This document shows positions 1,272-63,839 of a stretch of DNA of 64,000 nucleotides, piece by piece. The DNA is from an uncultured Candidatus Saccharibacteria bacterium (GTDB lineage: Bacteria > Patescibacteriota > Minisyncoccia > Phycocordibacterales > UBA2100). The notes under the pieces are model-generated. The model did not search any database and was not told the origin of the DNA. It worked only from the letters and a program-made list of their open reading frames with translations. Within the stretch, counting starts at the first letter, position 1; each line of letters begins with the position of its first letter. The stretch is taken from contig CAZJEQ010000001.1 in the NCBI GenBank assembly GCA_964545165.1, forward strand, positions 65,971 through 129,970, read 5' to 3'. The translations under genes and the position numbers were made by a program.

Positions 1272-1721
1272 TTAGAAAAGCTTCGGGTTTAGGATACCGC
1301 TCGAAAAAAGTTCCTGAAGCGGAGACGCCGGAGGTATATAATCCCTCCGTACAAAGAATCGAGAAGGTGTATACGTGCGATCAATCGGGGGACGCCGCAA
1401 ATGAGTACATAGAAACGCAAGAGCAAGTGCGGCTAAGAGCATCAAAATAAGCGTCGAACCTGTTTGCGATGGGATGCTTGTGAACATGCTCTGCCACGCG
1501 GCAATATGTTCAAGCGGATCCATATTGCACACTACCGCCTGTCCGGACATGAATGGGCAATTCGACGTGGTCATATTCCCGTCCCCACCCATAGGCATAC
1601 TTGAGTGGAAAAGACCAAAGAAACCGATCAAAAGAAAGGCGATGAGCCCGAGAACGAGCAGTATTTTACCGACTTTTGACAACGAAACGGTCATTACAAG
1701 TAGTATAGCTGATTTGGACAA
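1272..1721 (-). CDS. hypothetical small membrane protein (2 TM helices)
   Basis: ORF track 149 aa with two hydrophobic segments. Co-oriented directly upstream of the DsbA-like gene. Confidence 0.4.
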   Translation of the reverse strand: MSKSAILLVMTVSLSKVGKILLVLGLIAFLLIGFFGLFHSSMPMGGDGNMTTSNCPFMSGQAVVCNMDPLEHIAAWQSMFTSIPSQTGSTLILMLLAALALAFLCTHLRRPPIDRTYTPSRFFVRRDYIPPASPLQELFSSGILNPKLF

Positions 1722-1830
1722 AAGGAAAAACGCTCCCGAAGTTTGAGAGTTTTAAGAGGCTGGGTTACCAACTCCGAGGCCTTTCGGGCGCTCTGGACTC
1801 CTGCCGCCATTGCGTCATTCCTTGAGGTGT

Positions 1831-3153
1831 ATGGAAACAACAGCCACAAGGGCACCGGGCGGCATTAACAGGCAGGCCACCCCCGCGCCCGTAAAGATCA
1901 GATACTGCCTGTATGCGAGAAAGAGCACCGAGGAAGAGGACAAGCAGGCGCTCTCTATAGAGTCGCAAGTGAGGGAGATGACCGCGATCGCCACGCGCGA
2001 AAACCTCGAGATCGTCGAGGTAAAGCGTGAGTCGCACTCCTCCAAGGAGGTTGGCCAGCGGGCGGTGTATAACCAGCTGCTTGAGGATATCCGGCAGGAA
2101 AAATTCAACGGCATCCTCACGTGGGCACCGGACCGCTTGAGCCGCAATGCCGGGGACCTCGGTGCGGTAGTGGACCTACTCGACCAAAAGAAGCTGGTCG
2201 AGATACGCACATTCACGCAGACTTTTACCAACAACCCGAACGAGAAGTTCATGCTCATGATTCTCGGGAGCCAGGCGAAGCTCGAGAACGACCAGAAAAT
2301 TATCAACGTGAAGCGCGGCCTTCGAGCGCGGTGCGAGATGGGCCTGCGGCCATCGACCGCGCCGACTGGCTACCTCAGCGAGAAGCGGACAGATCGCAAA
2401 TGCGAAGTCGTCATCGATCCGAAATGTGCCGGGACCATACGGAAGATATTCGAGAAAATCGGCAACGATGGGTGGAGCGGGCGGCAAACGCACCGATGGC
2501 TCACGAAGAACGGCTTCAAGACCCGGACCGGCAAGCGACTCTCGCTCGGGAATCTCTACACCGTTATCCGCAACACCTTCTACTACGGAGAATTCGAGTA
2601 CCCGCGCGGGAGCGGCAACTGGTATCAGGGTAAGCACGAGCCGCTCATCACCAAGGAACTGTTCGACAAAGTGCAGGAGTCAATCCAGGACCAGTACATC
2701 CCCAAAACCGAAAGCAAGGAATTCGCATTCACAAGGCTGATTGCGTGCGGCGTGTGCGGGAGCGGCATCACCGCTGACGAGAAATTCAAGAAGCTTAAGG
2801 ATGGCGGTGTGAACCGCCATGTCTACTACCGCTGCACGCACGCGAAGGACACGGAGTGCAAGAATCCGCCCGTGAACGAAACTGATCTCATCGAAGAGCT
2901 GACTAAGCTACTCGACACCATCGACATCGACGAGATTGGCATGAAGGAAAAAATCCGCGATGAGATATCCCGCTATAACAAATTTCGCACCGGCGTCTTA
3001 GGTATGAAAACCAAAGAACGCAGTAGCGATGTAGACCTGCGCGACTACGCCAAGTATCTCCTCAAAGAGGGTACAATCGCCGAGAAGCGCGAGTTGCTAT
3101 CTTGCCTCAAGAGCAAGCTGGTGCTCAAAGCCCGACAGATCAGCTTAAGCTGA
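1831..3153 (+). CDS. large serine recombinase (resolvase-type catalytic domain + recombinase domain + Zn ribbon)
   Basis: YCLYARKSTEEEDKQALSIESQ catalytic-serine motif. Zn ribbon CGVCGSG...YYRCTH. ORF track opens at 1810 with TTG; first ATG at 1831. Confidence 0.85.
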   Translation: METTATRAPGGINRQATPAPVKIRYCLYARKSTEEEDKQALSIESQVREMTAIATRENLEIVEVKRESHSSKEVGQRAVYNQLLEDIRQEKFNGILTWAPDRLSRNAGDLGAVVDLLDQKKLVEIRTFTQTFTNNPNEKFMLMILGSQAKLENDQKIINVKRGLRARCEMGLRPSTAPTGYLSEKRTDRKCEVVIDPKCAGTIRKIFEKIGNDGWSGRQTHRWLTKNGFKTRTGKRLSLGNLYTVIRNTFYYGEFEYPRGSGNWYQGKHEPLITKELFDKVQESIQDQYIPKTESKEFAFTRLIACGVCGSGITADEKFKKLKDGGVNRHVYYRCTHAKDTECKNPPVNETDLIEELTKLLDTIDIDEIGMKEKIRDEISRYNKFRTGVLGMKTKERSSDVDLRDYAKYLLKEGTIAEKRELLSCLKSKLVLKARQISLS

Positions 3154-3376
3154 GAATACCGACAACGAGACTCGCAATCGCGAGAGGGACGCCGAGTATT
3201 GTCGCAACTGCGGCCCAGAACATAATCGGGTGTTCGGCTTTGAATGCACCGATGCGCGTCCGGATCATGCGCGTTCCCGAGCCTGCGATTCTTACACCTC
3301 CCGCAATGTGGCTATCGATAAAAGTATTGTCCTTTGCGTCCTTCGTTATTTCCAGTACTACCCGTTCTTTTTCCAT
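3140..3376 (-). CDS. hypothetical small tail-anchored membrane protein
   Basis: ORF track 78 aa with C-terminal hydrophobic helix (IMFWAAVATILGVPLAIASLVVGILSLS). Co-oriented with 3386-3997. Confidence 0.3.
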   Translation of the reverse strand: MEKERVVLEITKDAKDNTFIDSHIAGGVRIAGSGTRMIRTRIGAFKAEHPIMFWAAVATILGVPLAIASLVVGILSLS

Positions 3377-3385
3377 ACAGATATA

Positions 3386-3997
3386 TTACTCTGATTCAAG
3401 CTCCTGCATCGCCTCATACTCGTCTGCACGAATTTCGGTTCTCGCATCAGCGAACCAAATAAAAGTCTCTCCTGCCTCCTTTCCGGATTCATAGATGGGC
3501 TGAATATTTATCTCGATATACTCCTCAAGATATTTACCCCGCTTTAGATCCTCAGGGAAACGGAAAGCTTCTCCGCTAGGGTCGGCCATATGCAACCGCG
3601 AAATAAATTTATCTAGTTTCTTCAGAGCTTTCTTTTCGGTTGGCCCGCCATACTGGTCTAGCATAGTCTCAATTTCGGGGCGTGCCTGCTTCCATAGGGC
3701 TTCCAAATTATGATTTCCGCGAAGCGGAGTGGCGTTTGGTTTGTCATATATAAAATGCTTCAGCATCAGCTCTGTTCCTTGTCGATACAGATACACGACG
3801 GGATAGATGGCAACGTCTAAAACAAGTTCGCCGCTCGCGTCTCTCGTTTCAATAATGTGCTTGGCTAGAAAATTCCCTGCATCAAAATAGCCGCTGCCGT
3901 AAGCAGCGAAGTCGTTCGTACCACCGCGCCATACGTTTAAGAACGGGCTTGATCCTCGCCCGAACGGAAATTGCCTCTTTCTCTTCTTACGAACCAT
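3386..3997 (-). CDS. hypothetical protein, AT-rich relative to surroundings, basic N-terminus (MVRKKRKRQ)
   Basis: ORF track 203 aa. No recognisable motif. Local GC is visibly lower than flanks. Confidence 0.45.
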   Translation of the reverse strand: MVRKKRKRQFPFGRGSSPFLNVWRGGTNDFAAYGSGYFDAGNFLAKHIIETRDASGELVLDVAIYPVVYLYRQGTELMLKHFIYDKPNATPLRGNHNLEALWKQARPEIETMLDQYGGPTEKKALKKLDKFISRLHMADPSGEAFRFPEDLKRGKYLEEYIEINIQPIYESGKEAGETFIWFADARTEIRADEYEAMQELESE

Positions 3998-4072
3998 TAC
4001 TATCCACTATGCCTCAACAGGCGTCGACATTAAAGGCGACCCCGCTCGGTCACTTGAATTAGCACTAACCTG

Positions 4073-4144
4073 TGCCCTCGGTAGGAATCGAACCTACATC
4101 AAGACCTTAGAAGAGTCCTGCACTATCCATTGTGCTACAAGGGC
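4073..4144 (-). tRNA. tRNA-Arg (anticodon TCT)
   Basis: Reverse complement folds as a cloverleaf: acceptor GCCCTTG/CGAGGGC, D-arm GCAC-AATGGATA-GTGC, anticodon stem GGACT/GGTCT with loop CTTCTAA, T-arm GTAGG-TTCGATT-CCTAC. CCA not encoded. Confidence 0.8.
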
Positions 4145-4289
4145 ATCAGAGGAGGAAGGGCAGGTCAATCGTAGCCGTCACTGCCCGTACGGTCAAACGT
4201 GCTGTCGGCACACGACTTGCCAAGTGCGTATAATTGTTGTATTGATTTCTGACGATCCACTGCCGGATCGAGCAACGAAGGAGTCTGAG

Positions 4290-4481
4290 ATGTCCGAGAG
4301 CCATGATGAGATGACGCCCGAGAGCGTGAAGAAGCGTGTCGATATGCTCAAGCCCGTCATGGGCGACATCTGCGAGATGGCCGGGCTGGTCATCGCGAAG
4401 GGCATCGACCCGCGGAGCGCGTTCTCCATCGTCGGCGCCTTGGTGTCCGGCAACCTGGGCAACCGTCACGGCGGCCACTAG
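4290..4481 (+). CDS. hypothetical small protein (63 aa) with extreme GC3 codon usage
   Basis: In-frame ATG at 4290 preceded by GGAG Shine-Dalgarno. Followed by rho-independent terminator. Nearly every codon ends in G/C, unlike neighbours. Confidence 0.4.
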   Translation: MSESHDEMTPESVKKRVDMLKPVMGDICEMAGLVIAKGIDPRSAFSIVGALVSGNLGNRHGGH

Positions 4482-8340: not shown

Positions 8341-8424
8341 CAGTATAACCTTCAAATTCTCAGCAGAGAATTTGAAGAGTTACACCCGGACGCATTCCTG
8401 CAGGAATGCGACGTTGGGTGTCAC
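8341..8424 (-). promoter_or_regulatory. copy A of ~82-bp double-palindrome promoter-proximal module (sense to gene 7873-8334)
   Basis: In gene sense: GTTACACCC...palindrome centred on CTGCAG, then perfect 12-bp IR CTTCAAATTCTC-AGCT/A-GAGAATTTGAAG, then GTTATACTG, 6-7 nt, ATG. 50 of 51 outer positions are identical to copy B at 63075-63156. Confidence 0.6.
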
Positions 8425-8443
8425 CTCTCACTGAGCCAGTGCG

Positions 8444-45738: not shown

Positions 45739-46518
45739 ATGGACGAGATAAAGGACACACAAAAGACAGATTCTATATCCCGCTTTATTGACGGACATTC
45801 AGTCCGTACGAACCCTTTTGGTGACAACAAAGCAGGTGATCGCGCGTATCGTAGGGCAGAGCGCATCACCGCAGCCATCCACCTCCTCACCAATCACATT
45901 GATGGGGATGAGCCTGTCTGCAGCGCCATACGCACGGGTGCCGTTGATCTACTTCAGTACATGCTCGAGCTTCGCAGTGAGATGCGATCATCGCAGTCGA
46001 GCATCTTTACTCGTGTGCAAGCAAAGATTCGCCACCTGATTTCACTCATACGAATCCTCACGGTTTCCGGATACGTGTCTATCCAGAATGCGACGACCAT
46101 GGTCGAGGCGCTTGATGAGCTTGGCAATTTTCTTACGGCATCGCAGCGCTCCATACTCTCGGAGAGTGTCGCACTTTCGCGCGAAGACCTACTTGACGTA
46201 CGTACTTCTGGAAGCAAAGCACCGAGCCGTAGCGTAAAGGACATAAGGGACACAGTGAGTCTGAAAGACGATCATCGTGATCATGACGCTGACAAGTCGT
46301 CTGTTAAATCTGCAGATACTAATGGACTGGTATCGGTCAGAGCGCAAAGTATTGTCGAAACACTCCAGAGCGGGGGCGTTATGGGTATTAAGGACATCTG
46401 CGCCAATTTGCCCGAGTACAGCGAAAAGATGATTCAGCGTGAGCTTGCTGAGATGGTAGAGAGCGGAAAAGTGCGAAAATCGGGCCTCAAACGTTGGAGT
46501 CGCTACTCCGTTGCGTAG
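45739..46518 (+). CDS. hypothetical protein with C-terminal wHTH-like segment, AT-rich locus
   Basis: ORF track 259 aa. C-terminal IKDICANLPEYSEKMIQRELAEMVESGKVRKSG resembles a winged helix. Confidence 0.4.
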   Translation: MDEIKDTQKTDSISRFIDGHSVRTNPFGDNKAGDRAYRRAERITAAIHLLTNHIDGDEPVCSAIRTGAVDLLQYMLELRSEMRSSQSSIFTRVQAKIRHLISLIRILTVSGYVSIQNATTMVEALDELGNFLTASQRSILSESVALSREDLLDVRTSGSKAPSRSVKDIRDTVSLKDDHRDHDADKSSVKSADTNGLVSVRAQSIVETLQSGGVMGIKDICANLPEYSEKMIQRELAEMVESGKVRKSGLKRWSRYSVA

Positions 46519-50873: not shown

Positions 50874-51641
50874 ATGAACAATAAACATACCTATATCGCT
50901 GGTGGGATCGCGGTCTTGCTCGTTGCAGGTGGCGCCTACTACTTTTTAAAGGACACGGGTGTCTTGCCGAATTTCCTCGACGACAGCACAGCAGCAAGCA
51001 GCACGGTGCAAGGTGCCAAAGAGACAACGCTTGCGGTTGGAGAGAAGGAAGTACCGCAGCCCAAGAATTTTGATCGCGCGCTCTCGTACCCCGCCAGCAT
51101 CACGGCGGATATCAAGGTCAAGATGCAGGCTGCGTTTGAAGAAGATCTCAAGCAAATCCGTGCGTCCAACGATGTCAATGCGTGGGCCGATCTCGCAGTC
51201 CTCCGTAAAATCACTGAAGATTTCAAGGGTTCAGCAGAAATCTGGACCTACCTCTCGAAGCGCTACACGACATACGTCGGCCCCTACGCAGCGCTCGGTG
51301 ATCTCTACAGCAACAACATCAAGGACTACCCGAAGGCGGAAGCGAATTATCTGAAGGCAATCTCCCTTGATCCGAAAAATACCGATCTCTACACAGATCT
51401 GTACCAGCTGTATCGCGGCCTATACGCAAAGACCAATACTGCTGCGGAAGACATCCTGAAGCAGGGCATTGCGGCAACCGGCGGCGTATACCAGCTGCAC
51501 GTCGAGCTCGCTCGATACTACGTCGGCAAGAATCGCACAGCTGAAGCCAAGACCGAATATGATGCCGCGATCGCCAATGCCAAGGTACAGGGCAACACTG
51601 CAGCGGCTACGCAAATCGAAGCAGAGAAGGCAGCGCTCTAA
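50874..51641 (+). CDS. TPR-like repeat protein with N-terminal TM anchor
   Basis: Track ORF trimmed to MNNKHTYIAGGIAVLLVAGGAYYF. C-terminal half is A/Y/L-rich helical repeats. TATACT box 7 nt before the ATG. Confidence 0.55.
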   Translation: MNNKHTYIAGGIAVLLVAGGAYYFLKDTGVLPNFLDDSTAASSTVQGAKETTLAVGEKEVPQPKNFDRALSYPASITADIKVKMQAAFEEDLKQIRASNDVNAWADLAVLRKITEDFKGSAEIWTYLSKRYTTYVGPYAALGDLYSNNIKDYPKAEANYLKAISLDPKNTDLYTDLYQLYRGLYAKTNTAAEDILKQGIAATGGVYQLHVELARYYVGKNRTAEAKTEYDAAIANAKVQGNTAAATQIEAEKAAL

Positions 51642-51659
51642 CGAGCTATCCCCACAAGC

Positions 51660-51689
51660 AAACGCCCCGCACACTGTGCGGGGCGTTTA
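51660..51689 (+). terminator. rho-independent terminator
   Basis: AAACGCCCCGCACACTGTGCGGGGCGTTTA. Confidence 0.7.
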
Positions 51690-51729
51690 CAATAAAGGAC
51701 ATCACTTAGTAAATTTGTCCGTTTTGTCC

Positions 51730-51828
51730 ATGAAGTACATTAAATCCGCAATTCAGCGCTCCATCCTCCCGATTCTCATCGCTGTCGTCGCCTCCGTGAT
51801 CTTCGTCGTCGCCATGCTCCAGGCCTAG
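51730..51828 (+). CDS. possible 32-aa hydrophobic micro-protein (MKYIKSAIQRSILPILIAVVASVIFVVAMLQA)
   Basis: Short in-frame ATG ORF after a terminator. Overlaps the 3' end of the convergent regulator gene by 4 nt. Weak support. Confidence 0.15.
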   Translation: MKYIKSAIQRSILPILIAVVASVIFVVAMLQA

Positions 51829-52340
51829 CGCCGCCTGAGCTCAAAATGATCGCGCAACGCGCGATCATTTTCCAATTTATCGACCACCATATACAGCACC
51901 TCCTTACCGAGGCGGTAGTCTGTCTTGAGCAGCGCCACCAACTCCTCACAATCGTAGGGGTACACCCATGCCGAATTCTGGAGCTTAAGAAAGCCAATTC
52001 TCCTCAAAGTATCTCTTAGGACTGCGCGGGCAGCTCTTCTTCTCTCTGGTATATCGAAAATGACCATCCGCCATTTGCTATCCCATTTTTGTTGCTCTGC
52101 TGGCTTGAGAGCGTGACGGAGCAAGAAAGCCCGGCCCTCATGTGTAATCTCATATCCGCTTTTGCGCTTGGTGACCAGGCCCTTTTTGATAAGTTTCCCC
52201 AACGCACTTCGGGTCTTCTCGCGCTCGGCACGCACAATGTGCTTTCCAACAAGGCCTGCGAGATTTGGTGCGATTACCACAAGGCTTAGGAGGCCACCGA
52301 CCTGAAGCGTCGTTAAAATAGTCATCCGAATCTTGGTCAT
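51825..52340 (-). CDS. wHTH + Cas2-like domain protein (PaaX-type architecture); candidate transcriptional regulator
   Basis: N-terminal winged helix (RSALGKLIKKGLVTKRKSGYEITHEG). C-terminal WRMVIFDIPERRRAARAVLRDTLRRIGFLKLQNSAWVYP follows the Cas2 core pattern (beta strand, D, R-rich, ..G..QNSVF). Track ORF starts at GTG 52400; first ATG at 52340. Confidence 0.5.
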   Translation of the reverse strand: MTKIRMTILTTLQVGGLLSLVVIAPNLAGLVGKHIVRAEREKTRSALGKLIKKGLVTKRKSGYEITHEGRAFLLRHALKPAEQQKWDSKWRMVIFDIPERRRAARAVLRDTLRRIGFLKLQNSAWVYPYDCEELVALLKTDYRLGKEVLYMVVDKLENDRALRDHFELRRR

Positions 52341-52376
52341 TCTCACTTCTTTCTTCAAATCCGCCTCTAGTCCCAT

Positions 52377-52415
52377 GCAGATATAATTATGCGACCGCAC
52401 ATTTATATCTGCAGC
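52377..52415. repeat. 39-bp near-perfect palindrome, copy 1 (TGCAGATATAATTATGCGACCGCACATTTATATCTGCAG)
   Basis: Reverse complement matches copy 2 at 55817-55855 at 38/39 positions. Lies in the divergent intergenic region between the regulator gene and 52480 gene. Contains TATAAT-like boxes on both strands. Confidence 0.8.
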
Positions 52416-52479
52416 CAGGAAAAGGGGTGGGTGGGGATAAGTTCATGAGGGAATGTGCATACGTGGAATAATTTGAACT

Positions 52480-53079
52480 ATGTCCACGGCTAAGAAAGTT
52501 TGGAGGGGCGTGCGCTGGCCACTCCTCGCATTGCTGATCGTGTGGGCGGGTTTCGTGCTCGCCGAGGTGCATTGGCCGGTGAACAAGGAGCGATCTGATG
52601 CAGCGGTAGCCGCTATCCAGGCGCAGAGGCTAACCATGGCCGATGTAGATGGTTCGAATCTTCCGCCTGAGCCCGATCCGAAAAAGGTGAATGCCACGAT
52701 CGCTGGCATCGACGCAAACGAGAATGGAATTCGAGACGATGTGGAGCTCGCTATCTTCAAGAAGTACCCGAATAACAAAAAAGTCCGCGCCGCTGCCTTG
52801 CAATATGCGCATGCGCTCCAGTCTCGGTTAACGCAAGTAATCGATGAAAACACCTGGCAAGCTTCTGTCTATATGAAATCGCGTGCCTACAGCTGTGTTT
52901 CTAAAGCGACCGATCTCAGTGCGGGCGCAAAAAGACTGGCTGCAATACAGGAGGTGACGGATTTTATTCAAAATCTAGTTCTTAATACTGCATCTCGAAA
53001 AGACAGAGACGTTAAATTAGAGAAATTCGCGACTTCTGCCGAAACTGCAGCGGGCAACAATTGTGATGTGTACGAATAA
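52480..53079 (+). CDS. hypothetical membrane-anchored/secreted protein, lower GC
   Basis: ORF track 199 aa with N-terminal hydrophobic helix. TAATTT box 5 nt before the ATG. Confidence 0.45.
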   Translation: MSTAKKVWRGVRWPLLALLIVWAGFVLAEVHWPVNKERSDAAVAAIQAQRLTMADVDGSNLPPEPDPKKVNATIAGIDANENGIRDDVELAIFKKYPNNKKVRAAALQYAHALQSRLTQVIDENTWQASVYMKSRAYSCVSKATDLSAGAKRLAAIQEVTDFIQNLVLNTASRKDRDVKLEKFATSAETAAGNNCDVYE

Positions 53080-53088
53080 ATAAACTCT

Positions 53089-55809
53089 ATGAAGCGAGCG
53101 CTCAGTCTCGTGGCTCTGACAACAGTCCTCGGTTTCCCAGCTTTACTCTTTGCGGACAGTTGTTCGACACAAGGCTATTCGGTCTTCATAGTAAATGGAA
53201 TTTTTAATACTCAGGAGAAAGCAGACGAAGGTTCCGATAAGCTTAAAGATTTACTGGGGGACAGTTTGAATAAAGAAGCACTGACGGTACGATCCGCCTA
53301 CAATCCGACCCATATAGCCGGTTTGGGCGATGTTGTGCAGGCAGTGACGCAGGCTTTTAACCAACCAGTTAGTAATTTTGACCGAGACACTATTTTACAT
53401 CGTATTCATTCTCAACTTAAGACGCAAAAAATCTTATTAGTCGGACATTCGCAAGGGACTTTTTACACAAACGAGCTCTATAAATATCTGACGACGCATG
53501 GGGTGCCGAAAGAATCTATCGGCGTCTACAATATCGCGACTCCGGCGAGTTATGTGGAAGGGGGTGGTGGGTATGTGACTTCTACCAATGACAAGATTAT
53601 TAATCTTGTTCGCAATACAGAGGTTGATGGAAATCTCAGTATTCATCTCAATTCATACTACGTGCTCGGCAACACGGTGAATTCTGCGCTGCGTGCGAAC
53701 ATTACAGTGCCCAAAGAGCCGGGCTACGACCAGAGCGATTTTGGTGGGCATAAACTCAGTGTGTATCTCGACGGTGCTGCACCGCGAATCATGAGCGATA
53801 TCGATGCGTCTTTGCGTCGACTCAAGGCGAGCGGGGGCTCAAGTAGTGAGTCGTGTTTTGAACCACCTGTCGAGGACATCTCGTATAAAGCCAAGTCTCT
53901 CTTCTATGCGATGGTGGATCCGCTTGCTGAGGGGACCAAGACGGTCGCGGTCGCAACGCGAAATGGTGCCGAAGGATTTACCGACTACGTCGCTGCAGGT
54001 ATCAATGATACAAAAAGCTTTGCGCAATCAGTCTTCAAGAATCTCGCGTCTGCGAACAACAGCTCGACCAATCAGGCGGCCGCAGCCGTGCTCGCGACTC
54101 CAGTTATCACTACAAAGCCCGTGCCGCAAAACGCACCCAAGCCTCCTCCTGCGCCAGTCACAAAAGTAACTGTTCAGACGCCGAGCCAGGCCGATTCGGT
54201 AAAGCTGCCTGTGCAATCGCCCGATATGGAAAAAGCGCCGGAGGAAAATAATCGAGAGCCAGTAGCGCCCGCTGTCGTTTCGACAGCGGGTTTTGGTGGT
54301 GGACAGCCCAGCTCGCCACAACAACAAGATCCTACGATGGTTGCGCTTTCTATAACTGCGCCTGCCAACAACGCCTTAGTAGCGACATCCTCGGTCGTTC
54401 TTGTCGGGACGGCAGACGTGGGCGCGTTAGTCACCGCGAGTTTCAATTCGTTGAGTGCGACGACAACAGCGGACGGGGCGGGTGAGTGGACTGTGCAACT
54501 CACTCTGCTCGAAGGAACCACCACGGTGACGGTGAGCGCGGTTGATGCAGCAGGGAAGAGTTCAGCAGTGCTGTCTCGCGACATAGTGGTAGATACAATG
54601 GCACCCACAGCGCCGACGCTCGGCATACTCGAATGCGCATCGACCATCGTGACAGGGCTCTGCGTCGTTCCGATTACTGCCGCGACGCTCGATTGGTCGG
54701 ATTCTGGCGCGGACCACTATCGCATTTTTAGAGACGGAGGATATGTCGCAAGTTTCATAGCGACCTCGAGCACTCAAGCAATCTCGACCAACGCAACTTC
54801 GAGTTTCGAGGTAGTTGCGTACGATCTCGCTGGCAATGCTGCGACCTCAAGTGCTGTAAATATCTACGCACTGTCTCAATCTGTCATCATCAACGAAATA
54901 GGATGGGGTGGGACCGACACCGGCAGTGTCTCAGGACAGCAATGGATCGAGCTCAAAAATATGTCTGCATTTATGATCGATCTCTCGCACGTGGTGATCT
55001 CGCGCTCTGGCGGAGCGGAGATAGCGCTCGCTGGCGCAAGCATTCCTGCTCACGGCGGGCTCGTCGTCGAGCAAACAGACATTGCATTCACCGGCACAAA
55101 CAAGCTCGTCACTCCTTTCTCAGATCTCTCCACGGTCGCGGCAGAACAACTTGCGATTACCTGGCGTGGAACGCTACTTGATGCGAGTCCTGCGGTCAGC
55201 ACTTGTTCATCGTGGTGTTCGGGAGGGCTCAATGTATCAATTGGCACCAATGTGAGTGGTGTTGCTGGGTTCACTTCGTCACTCTCGATGGAGAGAGTGA
55301 CGAATGCCGCAGATGGAACGCTCGCTTCTAGCTGGCAGAGTACGGATAGCTACAACGCGGCTTTCTGGGGTACGCCCAATGTTGAGAATAGCAGTGGCTT
55401 GCCGGAGAGTGGGGTCATTTGTAGCGCCGGCGGCTTACTGGTGCCAAGTGCAACAACGCGTCCCTACGATACCGGCAATGTTTCGTGCACCTACCTAATG
55501 AAATTTATCTCGAGCGGCACGACTGGCGCACCTCGCTATGCCGGTCTCTACATGGGCACCGTGGGAAGCTCGACCGTGATCAACGCGCATTTCTTCAGCA
55601 AGTCTATGCAACGCGAGAGTACTGATGTGGTGCCGCCGGGGACTCCTGCTGGCACAGAATTCTTCTTTGTGATCTACGAAGCGCCGACATGGATGGATGC
55701 GGTCACGCCATTCGGAATGTATTTCACCAAGGGCTCCGACCCTGCAAATGGCGGTGCTCCGCCGCCGCACGGCAATTACGTAACCATCCCATTCGTCTAC
55801 CAACCCTGA
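53089..55809 (+). CDS. secreted multidomain protein: alpha/beta-hydrolase (lipase/esterase GHSQG) + Big-like repeats + lamin-tail domain (LTD)
   Basis: Signal peptide. LLVGHSQGT nucleophile elbow. Central T/S/A-rich Ig-like region. VIINEIGWGG...QWIELKN...IDLSHVVI matches the LTD signature. Confidence 0.7.
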   Translation: MKRALSLVALTTVLGFPALLFADSCSTQGYSVFIVNGIFNTQEKADEGSDKLKDLLGDSLNKEALTVRSAYNPTHIAGLGDVVQAVTQAFNQPVSNFDRDTILHRIHSQLKTQKILLVGHSQGTFYTNELYKYLTTHGVPKESIGVYNIATPASYVEGGGGYVTSTNDKIINLVRNTEVDGNLSIHLNSYYVLGNTVNSALRANITVPKEPGYDQSDFGGHKLSVYLDGAAPRIMSDIDASLRRLKASGGSSSESCFEPPVEDISYKAKSLFYAMVDPLAEGTKTVAVATRNGAEGFTDYVAAGINDTKSFAQSVFKNLASANNSSTNQAAAAVLATPVITTKPVPQNAPKPPPAPVTKVTVQTPSQADSVKLPVQSPDMEKAPEENNREPVAPAVVSTAGFGGGQPSSPQQQDPTMVALSITAPANNALVATSSVVLVGTADVGALVTASFNSLSATTTADGAGEWTVQLTLLEGTTTVTVSAVDAAGKSSAVLSRDIVVDTMAPTAPTLGILECASTIVTGLCVVPITAATLDWSDSGADHYRIFRDGGYVASFIATSSTQAISTNATSSFEVVAYDLAGNAATSSAVNIYALSQSVIINEIGWGGTDTGSVSGQQWIELKNMSAFMIDLSHVVISRSGGAEIALAGASIPAHGGLVVEQTDIAFTGTNKLVTPFSDLSTVAAEQLAITWRGTLLDASPAVSTCSSWCSGGLNVSIGTNVSGVAGFTSSLSMERVTNAADGTLASSWQSTDSYNAAFWGTPNVENSSGLPESGVICSAGGLLVPSATTRPYDTGNVSCTYLMKFISSGTTGAPRYAGLYMGTVGSSTVINAHFFSKSMQRESTDVVPPGTPAGTEFFFVIYEAPTWMDAVTPFGMYFTKGSDPANGGAPPPHGNYVTIPFVYQP

Positions 55810-55816
55810 AAAACCC

Positions 55817-55855
55817 TGCAGATATAAATGTGCGATCGCATAATTATATCTGCAG
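55817..55855. repeat. 39-bp near-perfect palindrome, copy 2 (TGCAGATATAAATGTGCGATCGCATAATTATATCTGCAG)
   Basis: Begins 8 nt after the stop of 53089-55809. Inverted-orientation copy of the 52377-52415 element. Inner 10-bp perfect palindrome TGCGATCGCA. Confidence 0.8.
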
Positions 55856-55982
55856 GCTGTCTATAAGACGTGGCGCTCATATTATGAAGATGCTAGTCTG
55901 CGAAGAGGAGAGATGATACACGTGGTCTTTCCGACCGCTCACGCGGGTCTTACACGTGTTCTCAAGGACAAAGGACTAGAAG

Positions 55983-56624
55983 ATGACCAAGCTCAAATCG
56001 GGTGCCGACGGCACTCCGGAGACGGCCAACACGGGTCAACACGGCTGCCTGCCGATCGACGTCGTCACCAAGGGCGACAACAACATCGTGGCGATCGTGG
56101 GCGCCGGTTGCATTCCGATCGACCTCTTCCTGATGGAGGGCGCCGCGACGGGCGTGGCCTACCTGCGCGACGACGTGTTCACCCTGGTCAAGACCAAGGA
56201 GAACTTCGACCTGTCGATCATCCATGCGGCGCCGCGCGACAACGACACGTTGCATGCCGACGACTTCGCCATCTCGCGTGAGATGATCGACGTCGACCCG
56301 TTCAACGGCCCGGCGGATCTCGTCCTCAACAACGTCACCGAGCGCTACGTCGGCCTGTTCGGTGCCTCGCGTCGCAAGCTCGCTCAGCCGGAGGCCTCGC
56401 TCAGCGGTCTCGCGGTGTGCGAAGCGGACGCTTTCGGCGATCGCCAGTGCATCAGCGACTCCGCCACCGGCGGTGACGACGCTGATCAGCTCGGCGACGA
56501 CGGCTCGATGCCCGATCTGTTGCAGGCGTGGCCCGAAGGCGGCGACGGCCGCCCCGTTCCGGCCTACATCGCAGCGGCGGCGCTGGGCGCTCACGCTCCG
56601 ATGGGCTTCGCGGCGACGACCTAG
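55983..56624 (+). CDS. hypothetical protein encoded with extreme GC3 (~90%), atypical for this genome; probable horizontally acquired gene
   Basis: ORF track 213 aa. Almost every codon ends in G/C, in contrast to rplL and recA here. Followed by strong terminator. The antisense ORF 55962-56645 is Arg-rich junk. Confidence 0.4.
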   Translation: MTKLKSGADGTPETANTGQHGCLPIDVVTKGDNNIVAIVGAGCIPIDLFLMEGAATGVAYLRDDVFTLVKTKENFDLSIIHAAPRDNDTLHADDFAISREMIDVDPFNGPADLVLNNVTERYVGLFGASRRKLAQPEASLSGLAVCEADAFGDRQCISDSATGGDDADQLGDDGSMPDLLQAWPEGGDGRPVPAYIAAAALGAHAPMGFAATT

Positions 56625-56685
56625 CGGCCTCTCCTCGGCCCACACTTTCGGAGCGATCGTCTCAACGACGAGAGTTCCACAAGAT

Positions 56686-56722
56686 GCCGGCGGACTTCGC
56701 GTCCGCCGGCGTTTCTTTTTTA
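56686..56722 (+). terminator. rho-independent terminator
   Basis: GCCGGCGGACTTCGCGTCCGCCGGCGTTTCTTTTTTA. Confidence 0.7.
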
Positions 56723-56743
56723 TAAAACCTGTATGAGTCAGGT

Positions 56744-57061
56744 GTGGACTGGATTCATGAAGGTGATACCGTGGAGGTAGGGAAGATACATGGCGCGGTC
56801 TTTCCTCACACCGAGTATTTGGTGCGCAGATGCGCCAACGGAGGTGACATGACTACACAGTCAGGTTGGAGGAACGGTGCCTTGGGCTCGGGAGATGTAT
56901 CGCTCCTGGATTCCATCGGCGCGCGAGCCCTCGACGGCTCGATCTCCCTCTCGGAGCGGGAGCTCGCTGCACAGTATGTGCTGGGCGAAGGTGAGACGGA
57001 GCCCGCGCAACTGCTCGGCATCATCGGCGGGCCGGCTGCCAGCATCATCGACTTCGGCTAG
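56744..57061 (+). CDS. hypothetical small protein (GTG start at 56744, or ATG at 56849 preceded by GGAGGTG)
   Basis: ORF track 105 aa. Bounded by terminators on both sides. Confidence 0.3.
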   Translation: MDWIHEGDTVEVGKIHGAVFPHTEYLVRRCANGGDMTTQSGWRNGALGSGDVSLLDSIGARALDGSISLSERELAAQYVLGEGETEPAQLLGIIGGPAASIIDFG

Positions 57062-57120
57062 CCGCAGCTCAGGGCAAGTCAAAGTCAGATCGACACGTGT
57101 CGATCACAGACCTTCTCCTG

Positions 57121-57156
57121 TTGAGAAGTGCGGCGGACCTCCGGGTCCGTCGCCTT
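57121..57156. terminator. bidirectional terminator between convergent genes
   Basis: CGGCGGACCTCCGGGTCCGTCGCC followed by TTTCTTTTTT. Confidence 0.55.
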
Positions 57157-57162
57157 TCTTTT

Positions 57163-57915
57163 TTAGAATCGGGGGCGATTGACCCAATTTTTTAGTGTGC
57201 GGAACACAAGATACAAAAGTACGATTGCGAGTACATAAAAAAGCCAGCGCGTGTCGAATGCAAAGAGTGCAGCGGCAGCGGCGAGCTGAAGGCCTTTGGC
57301 ACCATATTCCTGAGCAGAATCGGTGAGCGATGGTGCGACCGCGCTGTTCATCGGCGGTCGGGTCTCGACTTTCTGCTTGGCGTAGGGCTCGACGAAATTC
57401 GCACCTGCTTCCCGGGCTTTTTCTGTCTGCTCGATGATGGCATCGGCGACGGTGCCGACTATTGGCACGGAGCTCGTCATATCGGAAATGGTGCTGCTCA
57501 CAGTCGACATGGTTTTATCCACGACGCCCGGCTCTTTGGGTGGCGGTGGCAGGGCGGCCGAGATCGTCACCGATATTTTTTCGGTCGATTCCTTCTGGGT
57601 GCCGGAGACAAAGCTGGCGCTGAGCGCGTGCGTGCCTTTGACCGCCGGCCAGCTCGATGTGATAAGTGATGAGCCGCCAGCGGGGAGTGAGACCTCCTTG
57701 GTATCAAATGTGGTACCGTCGGCGAGGAATGCGACGGCACCTTTCATCTCGCTGTCGGAGGCGTTGTACACCGCGGCGTACATGGTGACCTTTTCACCCT
57801 CGCGTGCCGTCGTCGATGAGACCCAGAGCGGCTGGCGCGGGAAGCCAAATGCAGCGGCAGAGACAAGCGACGGTGCAAGAACGAGGATGGATACCAGGAA
57901 AACTCGGGTACGCAT
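57163..57915 (-). CDS. hypothetical secreted protein with signal peptide and C-terminal TM anchor
   Basis: MRTRVFLVSILVLAPSLVSAAA signal. C-terminal WLFYVLAIVLLYLVF helix. Confidence 0.5.
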   Translation of the reverse strand: MRTRVFLVSILVLAPSLVSAAAFGFPRQPLWVSSTTAREGEKVTMYAAVYNASDSEMKGAVAFLADGTTFDTKEVSLPAGGSSLITSSWPAVKGTHALSASFVSGTQKESTEKISVTISAALPPPPKEPGVVDKTMSTVSSTISDMTSSVPIVGTVADAIIEQTEKAREAGANFVEPYAKQKVETRPPMNSAVAPSLTDSAQEYGAKGLQLAAAAALFAFDTRWLFYVLAIVLLYLVFRTLKNWVNRPRF

Positions 57916-57935
57916 GCCTACAGTATAATAGAGAT

Positions 57936-58097
57936 ATGCAGCAGTCTGGGACGAGTGATTTCTTCAAATTCCTCTTCGGCTTCCTCATTTTTATCTGCGT
58001 GAGCTTCGGCGTGACCTTTACCGTCAACAAGCTCGCCATCGCCAAAGACCTCTCCCAAGCCGCCGCGGCGGCGCGCGCACAGACCTTGGGCGAATAA
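57936..58097 (+). CDS. hypothetical 53-aa membrane micro-protein
   Basis: TATAAT 6 nt before the ATG. Hydrophobic FFKFLFGFLIFICVSFGVTF. Followed by terminator at 58101-58135. Confidence 0.4.
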   Translation: MQQSGTSDFFKFLFGFLIFICVSFGVTFTVNKLAIAKDLSQAAAAARAQTLGE

Positions 58098-63044: not shown

Positions 63045-63075
63045 ACGACCCCGCCCGTGGCGGGGTCGTGTTTTG
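63045..63075 (+). terminator. rho-independent terminator
   Basis: ACGACCCCGCCCGTGGCGGGGTCGTGTTTTG. Confidence 0.7.
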
Positions 63076-63156
63076 TTACACCCGGACATGTCGCTGCAGC
63101 AACATGTCCGGGTGTAACTCTTCAAATTCTCAGCTGAGAATTTGAAGGTTATACTG
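63075..63156 (+). promoter_or_regulatory. copy B of ~82-bp double-palindrome promoter-proximal module (sense to gene 63162-63839)
   Basis: GTTACACCCGGACATGTCGCTGCAGCAACATGTCCGGGTGTAAC, then CTTCAAATTCTC-AGCT-GAGAATTTGAAG, then GTTATACTG, 5 nt, ATG. TATACT -10-like box lies 6 nt before the start codon. Confidence 0.6.
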
Positions 63157-63161
63157 CGCGC

Positions 63162-63839
63162 ATGCAAGCAGTCATTCTCGCCGCCGGTCGTGGTACGCGC
63201 ATGGGTGCGCTCACCGAGTCGACCCCGAAGCCGATGCTCCTCCTCAATGGTCGCCCGGTCCTTGAGTACATTTTTGATTCGCTTCCCGATAGTGTCGACG
63301 AAATTATTGTTGTCGTGGGGTACCTGGGCGGCGTCATACAAAAGCATTTCGGCGGTGTTTATATAGACAAAAAGATATTGTATGTCGAACAGGAGACACT
63401 CAACGGTACTGCCGGTGCACTCTGGGCGGCACAAGAGCTGATTCACGGACCGTTTCTTGTGCTCAACGGCGACGATATGTACGAGCGAGAAGACATGGAG
63501 GCGTGCTTCAAGTACGACTGGGCGGTACTCGTCTATAAGATGGATCACCTGGAAGGCGCGAGTGTGATCTTCGATGCAAACAATGTCGTGACCTCTATCG
63601 AGGAAAACGATGCTCGCGATCGTGAGAGCGGGTACGCGAACGCGGCACTGTACTTTTTGCAGCCAACAATTTTCGAATACCCGCTGATTCCAAAGAGGCC
63701 GGGCTCATCAGAATTCGGGTTGCCACAAACCATCATTGCCGCAGGATTACCGCTTGTGGCAGTACCAGCTACGTCGTGGGTTCGCCTCACTGAACCGAGC
63801 GACATTCAAAAGGCTGAAGAGATACTTGCAGCGCGTTGA
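63162..63839 (+). CDS. sugar-phosphate nucleotidyltransferase (NTP_transferase family)
   Basis: MQAVILAAGRGTRMGALTESTPKPML G-rich pyrophosphorylase signature. Confidence 0.8.
   Translation: MQAVILAAGRGTRMGALTESTPKPMLLLNGRPVLEYIFDSLPDSVDEIIVVVGYLGGVIQKHFGGVYIDKKILYVEQETLNGTAGALWAAQELIHGPFLVLNGDDMYEREDMEACFKYDWAVLVYKMDHLEGASVIFDANNVVTSIEENDARDRESGYANAALYFLQPTIFEYPLIPKRPGSSEFGLPQTIIAAGLPLVAVPATSWVRLTEPSDIQKAEEILAAR

Follow-up and report, generated by a model that had tools for sequence, protein, structure and literature searches.

Why should a near-perfect 40-base-pair (bp) palindrome occur exactly twice, and in inverted orientation, in a long stretch of a Patescibacterial genome, once directly against the start codon of a putative regulator gene and once just behind the gene for a secreted protein? 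The question is raised by 64,000 nucleotides (nt) of DNA from an uncultured Candidatus Saccharibacteria bacterium (assembly GCA_964545165.1, contig CAZJEQ010000001.1, positions 65,971 to 129,970), hereafter the window. The two palindromes, designated copy 1 and copy 2, bracket a 3.4-kb cassette of two genes (p199 and a lipase-like gene), and copy 1 separates this cassette from a divergent gene whose product resembles the transcriptional repressor PaaX. Comparison of the locus with its relatives suggests that the palindromes are likely the cognate operators of the adjacent PaaX-like regulator, which would control its own expression through copy 1.

Copy 1 occupies positions 52375–52414 and copy 2 positions 55816–55855; each is 40 bp long, and on the forward strand they read ATGCAGATATAATTATGCGACCGCACATTTATATCTGCAG and CTGCAGATATAAATGTGCGATCGCATAATTATATCTGCAG, respectively. 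The copies are identical at 38 of 40 positions in inverted orientation, compared with 34 of 40 in direct orientation. They differ at one central base and at the outermost base, which in copy 1 makes the ATG of the regulator gene. Each copy is itself a palindrome, with arms of 12 bp, asymmetric blocks of 3 nt, and TGCG(A/G)(T/C)CGCA at its center. Querying the window with the 39-mer (up to 3 mismatches) returned exactly these two matches, with none in 100 dinucleotide-preserving shuffles. A preliminary description of the locus, made from the sequence alone, had reported the two inverted palindromes, and these are real; its coordinates for copy 1 (52377–52415) were off by about 2 nt, and copy 2 begins 6 nt, rather than 8 nt, past the TGA stop codon of the lipase-like gene (55807–55809). 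The TATAAT-like boxes noted there are likewise present on both copies, as a TATAAT at 52382–52387 (+) and as CATAAT at 52386–52391 (−) and 55839–55844 (+).

Searches with parts of the palindrome did not extend the pair. The arms alone (GCAGATAT-N20-ATATCTGC, up to 3 mismatches) recovered both copies in the window as well as one match with 3 mismatches at 4338, which does not contain the central motif and is not credible as a further site. A half-site match at 46304–46321 lies inside a coding region and was rejected as being at chance level. The pattern GCAGATATAA-N12-20-TTATATCTGC, searched in one genome per species, returned 55 loci in unrelated, mostly low-GC (guanine–cytosine) organisms, and these were discarded as chance matches; none of the 55 was in Patescibacteria, and it appears that the representatives do not include the source species.

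The gene that adjoins copy 1 (51825–52376, minus strand) encodes a predicted protein of 183 amino acids (aa) with a winged helix and a Cas2-like PaaX_M domain. The match to Pfam PaaX_M (PF20803) has an E-value of 3.7e-22 (78.7 bits, cutoff 24), and matches to winged-helix models are weak. NCBIfam model TIGR02277 (PaaX) is matched in part, over model positions 35–136 of 279 (35.9 bits vs. a cutoff of 264.55), and NCBIfam cas2 gives a near-threshold score (23.7 bits, cutoff 24.5). PaaX_C, the C-terminal helical effector domain with which PaaX senses phenylacetyl-CoA, was not matched in Pfam; the protein ends at residue 183, straight after PaaX_M. A sequence profile search of PDB matched structures 3kfw and 8a39. 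In the AlphaFold model, the mean predicted local distance difference test score (pLDDT) is 70.7; the Cas2-like part exceeds 85 and the winged-helix part is of low confidence. Querying PDB with this model in Foldseek returned E. coli PaaX (8a39, E = 8.8e-5) as the top match, followed by Rv0674 (3kfw) and then by many Cas2 chains. These data agree with the combination of winged helix and Cas2-like domain proposed in the preliminary description.

In the Cas2-like domain, W98, D99, W102, R103, F107, D108, Q133, S135, and W137, which lie within residues 98–140 (51957–52085, minus strand), are invariant across 33 aligned homologs. D108, in the sequence FDIP, presumably sits where Cas2 has its catalytic Asp; E. 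coli PaaX is not known to have the FDIP-Asp motif. No paralog of the regulator was found in the 64-kb window.

The position of the palindrome relative to this gene depends on the start codon. The preliminary description placed the coding sequence at 51825–52340. The N-terminus M-G-x-L-E (MGLE...) is conserved across the 33 aligned homologs, with the Glu (E4) invariant, and the best database match, P0001, is also 183 aa long; the true ATG is therefore at 52376. It follows that copy 1 ends exactly at the start codon of the regulator, with no room for a ribosome-binding site between them; elsewhere in the same genome, strong AGGAGG sites are used. A −10-like hexamer, CATAAT, can be read within the palindrome at 52386–52391 on the minus strand, 9 nt upstream of the ATG, and AATTAT at −12 to −7 is an alternative. 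Because the palindrome both abuts the start codon and carries a −10 box, the regulator mRNA is probably leaderless. On the opposite strand, a perfect TATAAT (52382–52387, +) faces the cassette and is a candidate −10 element of a p199–lipase operon. A scan for consensus −35/−10 promoters called neither palindrome, and no −35/−10 pair was found at 52382–52387.

Close relatives carry palindromes at the same place. Orthologs of the regulator in loci L056, L057, and L059 share 71%, 69%, and 48% identity with it, respectively, and each has a palindrome of 38–44 bp at the corresponding position. In L056 and L057 the palindrome is 38–40 bp long and ends at the ATG (reading GGTTAATATAAAAACGCGGTCGCATAATTATATTGACT and ATAGTTCGATAATTATACGGTCGTATAATTATCGAACT, respectively, each followed by ATG); the core CGGTCG(C/T)ATAATTAT is kept in both, and the outer arms differ, yet stay symmetric. 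The L059 palindrome (CCGGTACATTATAAC...GTTATAATGTACCGG) lies one base before the ATG. This locus has a second copy right after the stop codon of the regulator gene, together with a divergent p199 and lipase pair as in the window.

The association extends throughout a large protein family. Scanning metagenomes with the regulator protein alignment yielded at least 80 loci, and the family counts given here come from the loci listed. When at least 14 of 19 complementary pairs were required within 90 nt upstream of the ATG, an upstream palindrome of 36–40 bp was found at 58 of 76 regulator genes, compared with about 2% of random 80-centre windows. Most of the relatives' palindromes fall in this size range, and a few reach 46 bp. 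At many loci, the AT of the regulator ATG forms the last two bases of the palindrome, and at many, reading the upstream sequences by eye, TATAAT, TATAGT, or TAAAAT lies six nt before the ATG, the geometry expected of leaderless transcripts. The centers of these palindromes read GCTATAGC, CCTATAGG, CGATCG, CGGTCG, or CGACCG. The arms differ between loci (ATACGTTAT, ATACATCAA, TGGAATCAT, CCCACCTAT, and others); they are locus-specific, yet common to the copies of one locus. Extra copies of each locus's own 38-mer occur at 1.29 per 10 kb within the same locus, compared with 0.08 per 10 kb in unrelated loci.

Near the regulator stop codon, between −20 and +120 nt of it, 50 of 65 loci carry a second copy, so that the common layout, which recurs in the majority of 66 relatives, is palindrome, regulator, palindrome, with centers 571–735 bp apart. 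Some loci have third copies upstream of neighboring genes. In L129, three near-identical sites (0–1 mismatch) precede a gene for a 216-aa protein, the regulator gene, and an FtsH-like gene; in L102, the last of three sites precedes homologs of p199 and the lipase, a pair that lies after the second palindrome. The window has no copy after the regulator stop; a convergent open reading frame of 32 aa is found there, as in L056, and the second copy is instead placed behind the divergent cassette, at its 3′ boundary. The layout of the window and that common in the family appear alike in that two sites bracket one predicted transcription unit.

A profile search of 1.84 billion cluster representatives identified 601 clusters (at 50% identity) with E ≤ 1e-30 and 3,330 with E ≤ 1e-10. 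The full-length members listed are about 166–259 aa long, mostly 180–200, and those with named sources are from Patescibacteria, including Paceibacterota, Zambryskibacteria, and Adlerbacteria. Database entries for the family are often misannotated as Cas2. No description of the family was found in the literature searched on PaaX, Patescibacteria, and Cas2.

Additional sequence features were observed at either end of the regulator gene. A DnaA-box-like 9-mer, TGGGGATAA (the reverse complement of TTATCCCCA), lies at 52432–52440 (+), 17 nt from copy 1. With up to one mismatch allowed, 15 of 65 loci (L087, L089, L092, L103, L128, L066, and L115 among them) have TTATCCACA in the 70 nt that precede the first palindrome, commonly 16–22 nt from it, and the motif is perfect in 7 of those 15, compared with about 0.13 perfect occurrences expected. 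The possibility that the motif is mirrored 3′ of the second palindrome, as part of terminal inverted repeats, was rejected: it is present there in 2 of 54 loci, in the same and not the mirrored orientation. At the other end, a perfect 13-bp stem with a 3-nt loop (AAAATGATCGCGC-AAC-GCGCGATCATTTT) occupies 51843–51871, in the last 50 nt of the regulator coding sequence. It has T-runs on both strands and is absent from the L056 ortholog; it could be a bidirectional terminator for the regulator gene and the convergent 32-aa reading frame (51730–51828).

Whether the palindromes are recognized as DNA or act through a folded nucleic acid can be addressed by comparing the copies. In 48 loci for which the two copies were compared, the center (pairs 0–3) and the outer arms (pairs 10–17) are the same and paired in nearly all, and the spacer (pairs 4–9) varies between copies; the asymmetric ATG/TAA blocks of the window fall within this spacer. 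Changes from one copy to the other comprise 27 compensatory double changes versus 184 one-sided ones. This tripartite conservation, together with the mostly one-sided changes, points to protein half-sites rather than a hairpin. Among mismatched pairs, G.T and A.C stand at 43:35 in upstream palindromes and 40:36 in downstream ones. A transcribed hairpin would give an excess of G.T over A.C, and in its absence there is no strand-specific signal of RNA pairing.

Additionally, the palindromes covary with the protein. Close to where the predicted recognition helix begins, one residue changes in step with base 4 of the arm: all 14 loci with xTACG...CGTAx arms have Tyr or Phe at this position, and all 18 with xTACA...TGTAx arms have Ile, Val, Ser, or Lys, so that the correspondence holds in 32 of 32. 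On a neighbor-joining tree this pattern corresponds to about three independent switches. These three tests favor recognition of the palindromes, as double-stranded DNA, by a protein.

E. coli PaaX offers a precedent for such an arrangement. It binds the sequence TGATTC(N27)GAATCA, which has a 39-bp span, and represses the promoter of its own gene by sterically hindering RNA polymerase (PMC9493321). The regulator of the window resembles the PaaX repressor of E. coli and Pseudomonas in having a winged helix and a Cas2-like PaaX_M domain, and in having a long-span inverted repeat (40 bp here, about 39 bp for PaaX) that overlaps its own putative promoter. It differs in several respects: it is 183 aa long as compared with 316 aa and does not have the PaaX_C effector domain; no paa catabolic genes are found nearby; the half-site has another sequence and is accompanied by an additional central core that is conserved; the gene seems to be leaderless; a second copy follows the regulator stop in most relatives; and the Cas2-type FDIP Asp is retained. 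The preliminary description had proposed paired operators for the adjacent winged-helix and Cas2-like protein, with autoregulation, and this proposal draws support from the palindromes at the same place in relatives, their locus-specific arms, the covariation of residue and base, and the 39-bp span of the PaaX site.

On this model, a dimer or higher oligomer of the regulator would bind both tripartite sites of about 38–40 bp. The recognized site would comprise the outer arms (GCAGATAT / ATATCTGC) and a central CG(A/G)(T/C)CG core, separated by looser 6-bp spacers that house the −10 hexamers. At copy 1, the regulator would cover the CATAAT/AATTAT region (52386–52391, minus strand) together with the start at 52376, which would silence the regulator's own, putatively leaderless, gene; since copy 1 also carries the TATAAT that faces p199 and the lipase, the cassette is probably co-repressed. 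Copy 2, some 3.4 kb away at the 3′ end of the cassette, would serve as a second operator, with its promoter-like half toward the orphan gene p213: the CATAAT-bearing half of copy 2 faces p213, as that of copy 1 faces the regulator. There it may control p213 and the following gene, p105, keep transcription from running out of the cassette, or form a pair with copy 1 across the 3.4 kb, and we give roughly even odds as to which of these roles applies.

Several observations weigh against this interpretation. The second palindrome is present whatever the direction of the next gene (23 of 25 loci with a convergent gene, 18 of 23 with a co-directional one), and so is not simply the operator of the next gene, a role that the convergent cases make doubtful; the second copy therefore appears to be part of the 3′ boundary of the transcription unit of the regulator itself. 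We also discarded the proposal that another leaderless ATG invariably follows the second palindrome, as the downstream genes are diverse and usually 40–140 nt away. L056, the closest relative with enough sequence, has no second copy. The regulator does not have the PaaX C-terminal effector domain. Half-site centers are about 28 bp apart here, compared with about 33 bp in PaaX. The covariation reflects only about three independent evolutionary changes. In addition, an invariant Asp (D108 in FDIP) is retained in the Cas2-like domain, so that a nuclease role is conceivable. Finally, the case is built throughout on sequence comparison.

Among the alternatives, an unlikely one is that the palindromes function mainly as RNA hairpins, with copy 2 serving as a terminator or 3′-end stabilizer of the lipase mRNA (and, in the family, of the regulator mRNA) and its likeness to the promoter palindrome being incidental or the result of duplication. 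As RNA, copy 2 folds into a hairpin of −28.1 kcal/mol (z = −8.9) which begins 6 nt past a stop codon, and the second copies of relatives also lie just past the regulator stop in 50 of 65 loci, even where the next gene is convergent. However, the hairpin is followed by GCUGUCUAUAAG, with no U-tract such as an intrinsic (Rho-independent) terminator has, and a terminator scan does not call copy 2; a search of positions 51000–58000 against Rfam also returned no match. The comparison of copies is unfavorable as well: the mismatches show no sense-strand G.U bias, changes are mostly one-sided, and conservation is in the arms and center, not along the stem. Nor is there any reason for a terminator to coevolve with a residue of the regulator or with the promoter palindrome, and if the regulator mRNA is leaderless, as it appears to be, copy 1 lies outside the regulator transcript altogether.

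We consider it similarly improbable that the winged-helix/Cas2 fusion cuts, recombines, or road-blocks at its palindromes, forming a self-insulating or selfish unit by which the lipase cassette would be insulated or moved. A reading in which palindrome, gene, and palindrome make up a selfish or mobile module, or the protein is a site-specific Cas2-like nuclease acting on the flanking palindromes, comparable to repetitive extragenic palindromic (REP) elements and their transposase, also seems quite unlikely. It would account for the bracketing of the regulator by its own palindromes in most relatives, whatever the identity or orientation of the neighbors. It would also fit the invariant FDIP Asp, the near-threshold Cas2 matches, and the Cas2 chains among the structural matches. 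As in Cas2, the C-terminal part of the regulator has a predicted ferredoxin-like fold, with the motifs FDIP...LQxSVWVYP and near-threshold matches to Cas2 hidden Markov models; unlike Cas2, this domain is fused to a winged helix, and the repeats that flank it are two or three palindromes, each beside a gene, rather than an array. No CRISPR array (clustered, regularly spaced repeats) was found in the window, and no cas1 was noticed, though no search aimed at cas1 was made.

The comparison with REP elements is similarly mixed. The likeness is to a single gene flanked by genome-specific palindromes of 35–40 bp, as with REP-associated tyrosine transposases (RAYT). The palindromes described here are, however, not dispersed in high copy: two are present in 64 kb, and the extra copies of relatives cluster beside the regulator. 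The regulator is not an HUH transposase, and no transposase domain was matched in Pfam. No target-site duplications were found around the palindrome–regulator module in the family, the identity between flanks being that expected at random, and the closely related loci L093 and L114 are syntenic. The upstream palindrome doubles as a putative promoter and start site, with its −10 box and start codon covered in a manner typical of an operator, and PaaX, a bona fide repressor, is the best match by structure.

The family also includes one duplicated case. In L067 (964–2672), tandem regulator paralogs each have their own palindrome pair (starts at 964, 1601, 1997, and 2635). The retention of a pair around each gene copy would also be in keeping with a selfish or nuclease-associated module.

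It is very unlikely that each palindrome is no more than a bidirectional promoter of symmetric build, in which two −10 regions stand back to back and to which no dedicated protein binds. TATAAT-like hexamers do occur on both strands of both copies, and copy 1 lies between divergent genes. Yet none of the outer arms (CTGCAG..., ATACGT..., TGGAAT...) is a promoter element; the arms are genome-specific, common to the copies within a genome, and covary with a residue of the regulator, and second copies are found between convergent genes, where no promoter is needed.

The preliminary description also raised the possibility that the inverted repeats are recombination sites and that the 3.4-kb cassette is invertible or mobilizable. 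It named a large serine recombinase as the only recombinase in the window. Such a gene exists and is the only one, though it spans 1810–3153 rather than lying at 1831; it encodes Resolvase, Recombinase, and zinc-ribbon domains and is close to a tRNA-Arg gene (4072–4144), with which it may mark an integrated element unrelated to the palindromes. Exact-protein look-ups recovered five contigs, from sequencing runs SRR14271331, -32, -35, and -36, all 100% identical to the window; those with the regulator (P0001) and the lipase returned none. Two of the contigs span copy 2 (lipase 3′ end to p213) and two span copy 1 (regulator to p199). None of these four contains an inverted junction, where assemblies report the majority state only.

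Inversion or mobilization seems highly unlikely. In its favor, and recalling the Hin/Gin, fim, and Bacteroides promoter switches, two near-identical 40-bp inverted repeats enclose a surface-protein segment. The gene content between the regulator and p250 also differs from L056, and the relative orientation of regulator and cassette is not constant: the two diverge in the window and in L059 but run in the same direction in L102 and L110, which could reflect an ancient palindrome-mediated rearrangement. Against it, no recombinase is among the neighboring genes (the sole one in the window lies about 49 kb from copy 1), and the four contigs that cross a junction, which come from three sequencing runs, all show the same arrangement as the window. 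Inversion would rewire no promoter–gene connection, as the halves of the two copies that face inward are nearly the same. Palindrome pairs in the family flank the regulator gene itself, without target-site duplications.

Interpretation of the palindromes as operators also bears on the genes they adjoin. The first gene of the cassette, p199 (52480–53079, +), encodes a predicted membrane-anchored protein with no Pfam or NCBIfam match. The second (53089–55809, +) encodes a lipase-like secreted protein of 906 aa, in whose translation a GHSQG motif is seen; its Pfam matches to Big_13, Glucodextran_B, and LTD (Ig-like and lamin-tail-like domains) are weak and all under the curated cutoffs. Homologs of p199 and the lipase occur as a pair beside family regulators in L059 (3412–5857), L102 (4137–5333), and L110 (2223–3980). 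This recurrent pairing supports a functional link to the regulator, and p199 could be a helper of the lipase. The cassette was initially described as low in GC, which holds weakly at best: p199 is 51% GC and the lipase gene 53%, in a window of about 56%, and the regulator gene itself is 51%.

The gene behind copy 2, p213 (55983–56624, +), begins 127 nt downstream of it and is a possible target of that site. As the preliminary description indicated, its GC content at third codon positions (GC3) is extreme, at 0.87 in a genome of 56% GC. No homolog other than p213 itself was found among 5.8 billion proteins, and the gene is identical in sequence in three Logan contigs. It is followed by p105 (56744–57061, +), the second small gene of the unit behind copy 2, which has no Pfam or NCBIfam match. 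Neither p213 nor p105 has a counterpart in L056, and the segment that holds them (55983–57061) is likely recently acquired DNA. Further neighbors of the locus encode membrane and unknown proteins, a TPR protein, and ribosomal proteins L10 and L7/L12.

In L056, the gene divergent from the regulator (1622–4300) also encodes a secreted lipase, of about 900 aa and with an LCAT domain; no homology is detectable between it and the lipase of the window. The region of L056 between the regulator and p250 does not contain p199, p213, or p105. The conserved regulator and p250 appear, from this comparison, to frame a variable slot in which gene content turns over. It had been suggested that synteny might show the cassette to be present or absent exactly at the repeats; content does differ between these loci, and nothing links the turnover to the palindromes.

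Taken together, the system most likely represents a PaaX-type repressor and its long-span operator in a truncated, Cas2-like, and apparently leaderless form, widespread in Patescibacteria and bracketed by its own sites, with a mechanism that would be conventional. To our knowledge, almost nothing has been established about gene regulation in the Patescibacteria (the candidate phyla radiation), almost none of which are cultured. The analysis assigns a concrete candidate operator to a large regulator family (the 601 clusters above), proposes an architecture for the site (arms, a spacer with the −10 box, and a center), and suggests a candidate rule of specificity, by which Tyr/Phe pairs with G and Ile/Val with A. 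Neither this architecture nor the residue–base rule was found described in the literature searched, and no existing concept is overturned. For the locus itself, one local regulator is predicted to control both a surface protein, secreted and lipase-like, and an orphan gene of probably foreign origin.

A second and unrelated composite palindrome also occurs twice in the window, at 8350–8425 and 63075–63147, the copies being 54.7 kb apart and in inverted order. It consists of a 28-bp palindrome (CTTCAAATTCTCAG..CTGAGAATTTGAAG) and a palindrome of 44–46 bp (GTTACACCCGGAC..CTGCAG..GTCCGGGTGTAAC). The copy at 63075–63147 is followed by GGTTATACT-N6-ATG at 63148–63165, and from its sequence the segment 63075–63165 looks like another operator combined with a leaderless promoter.

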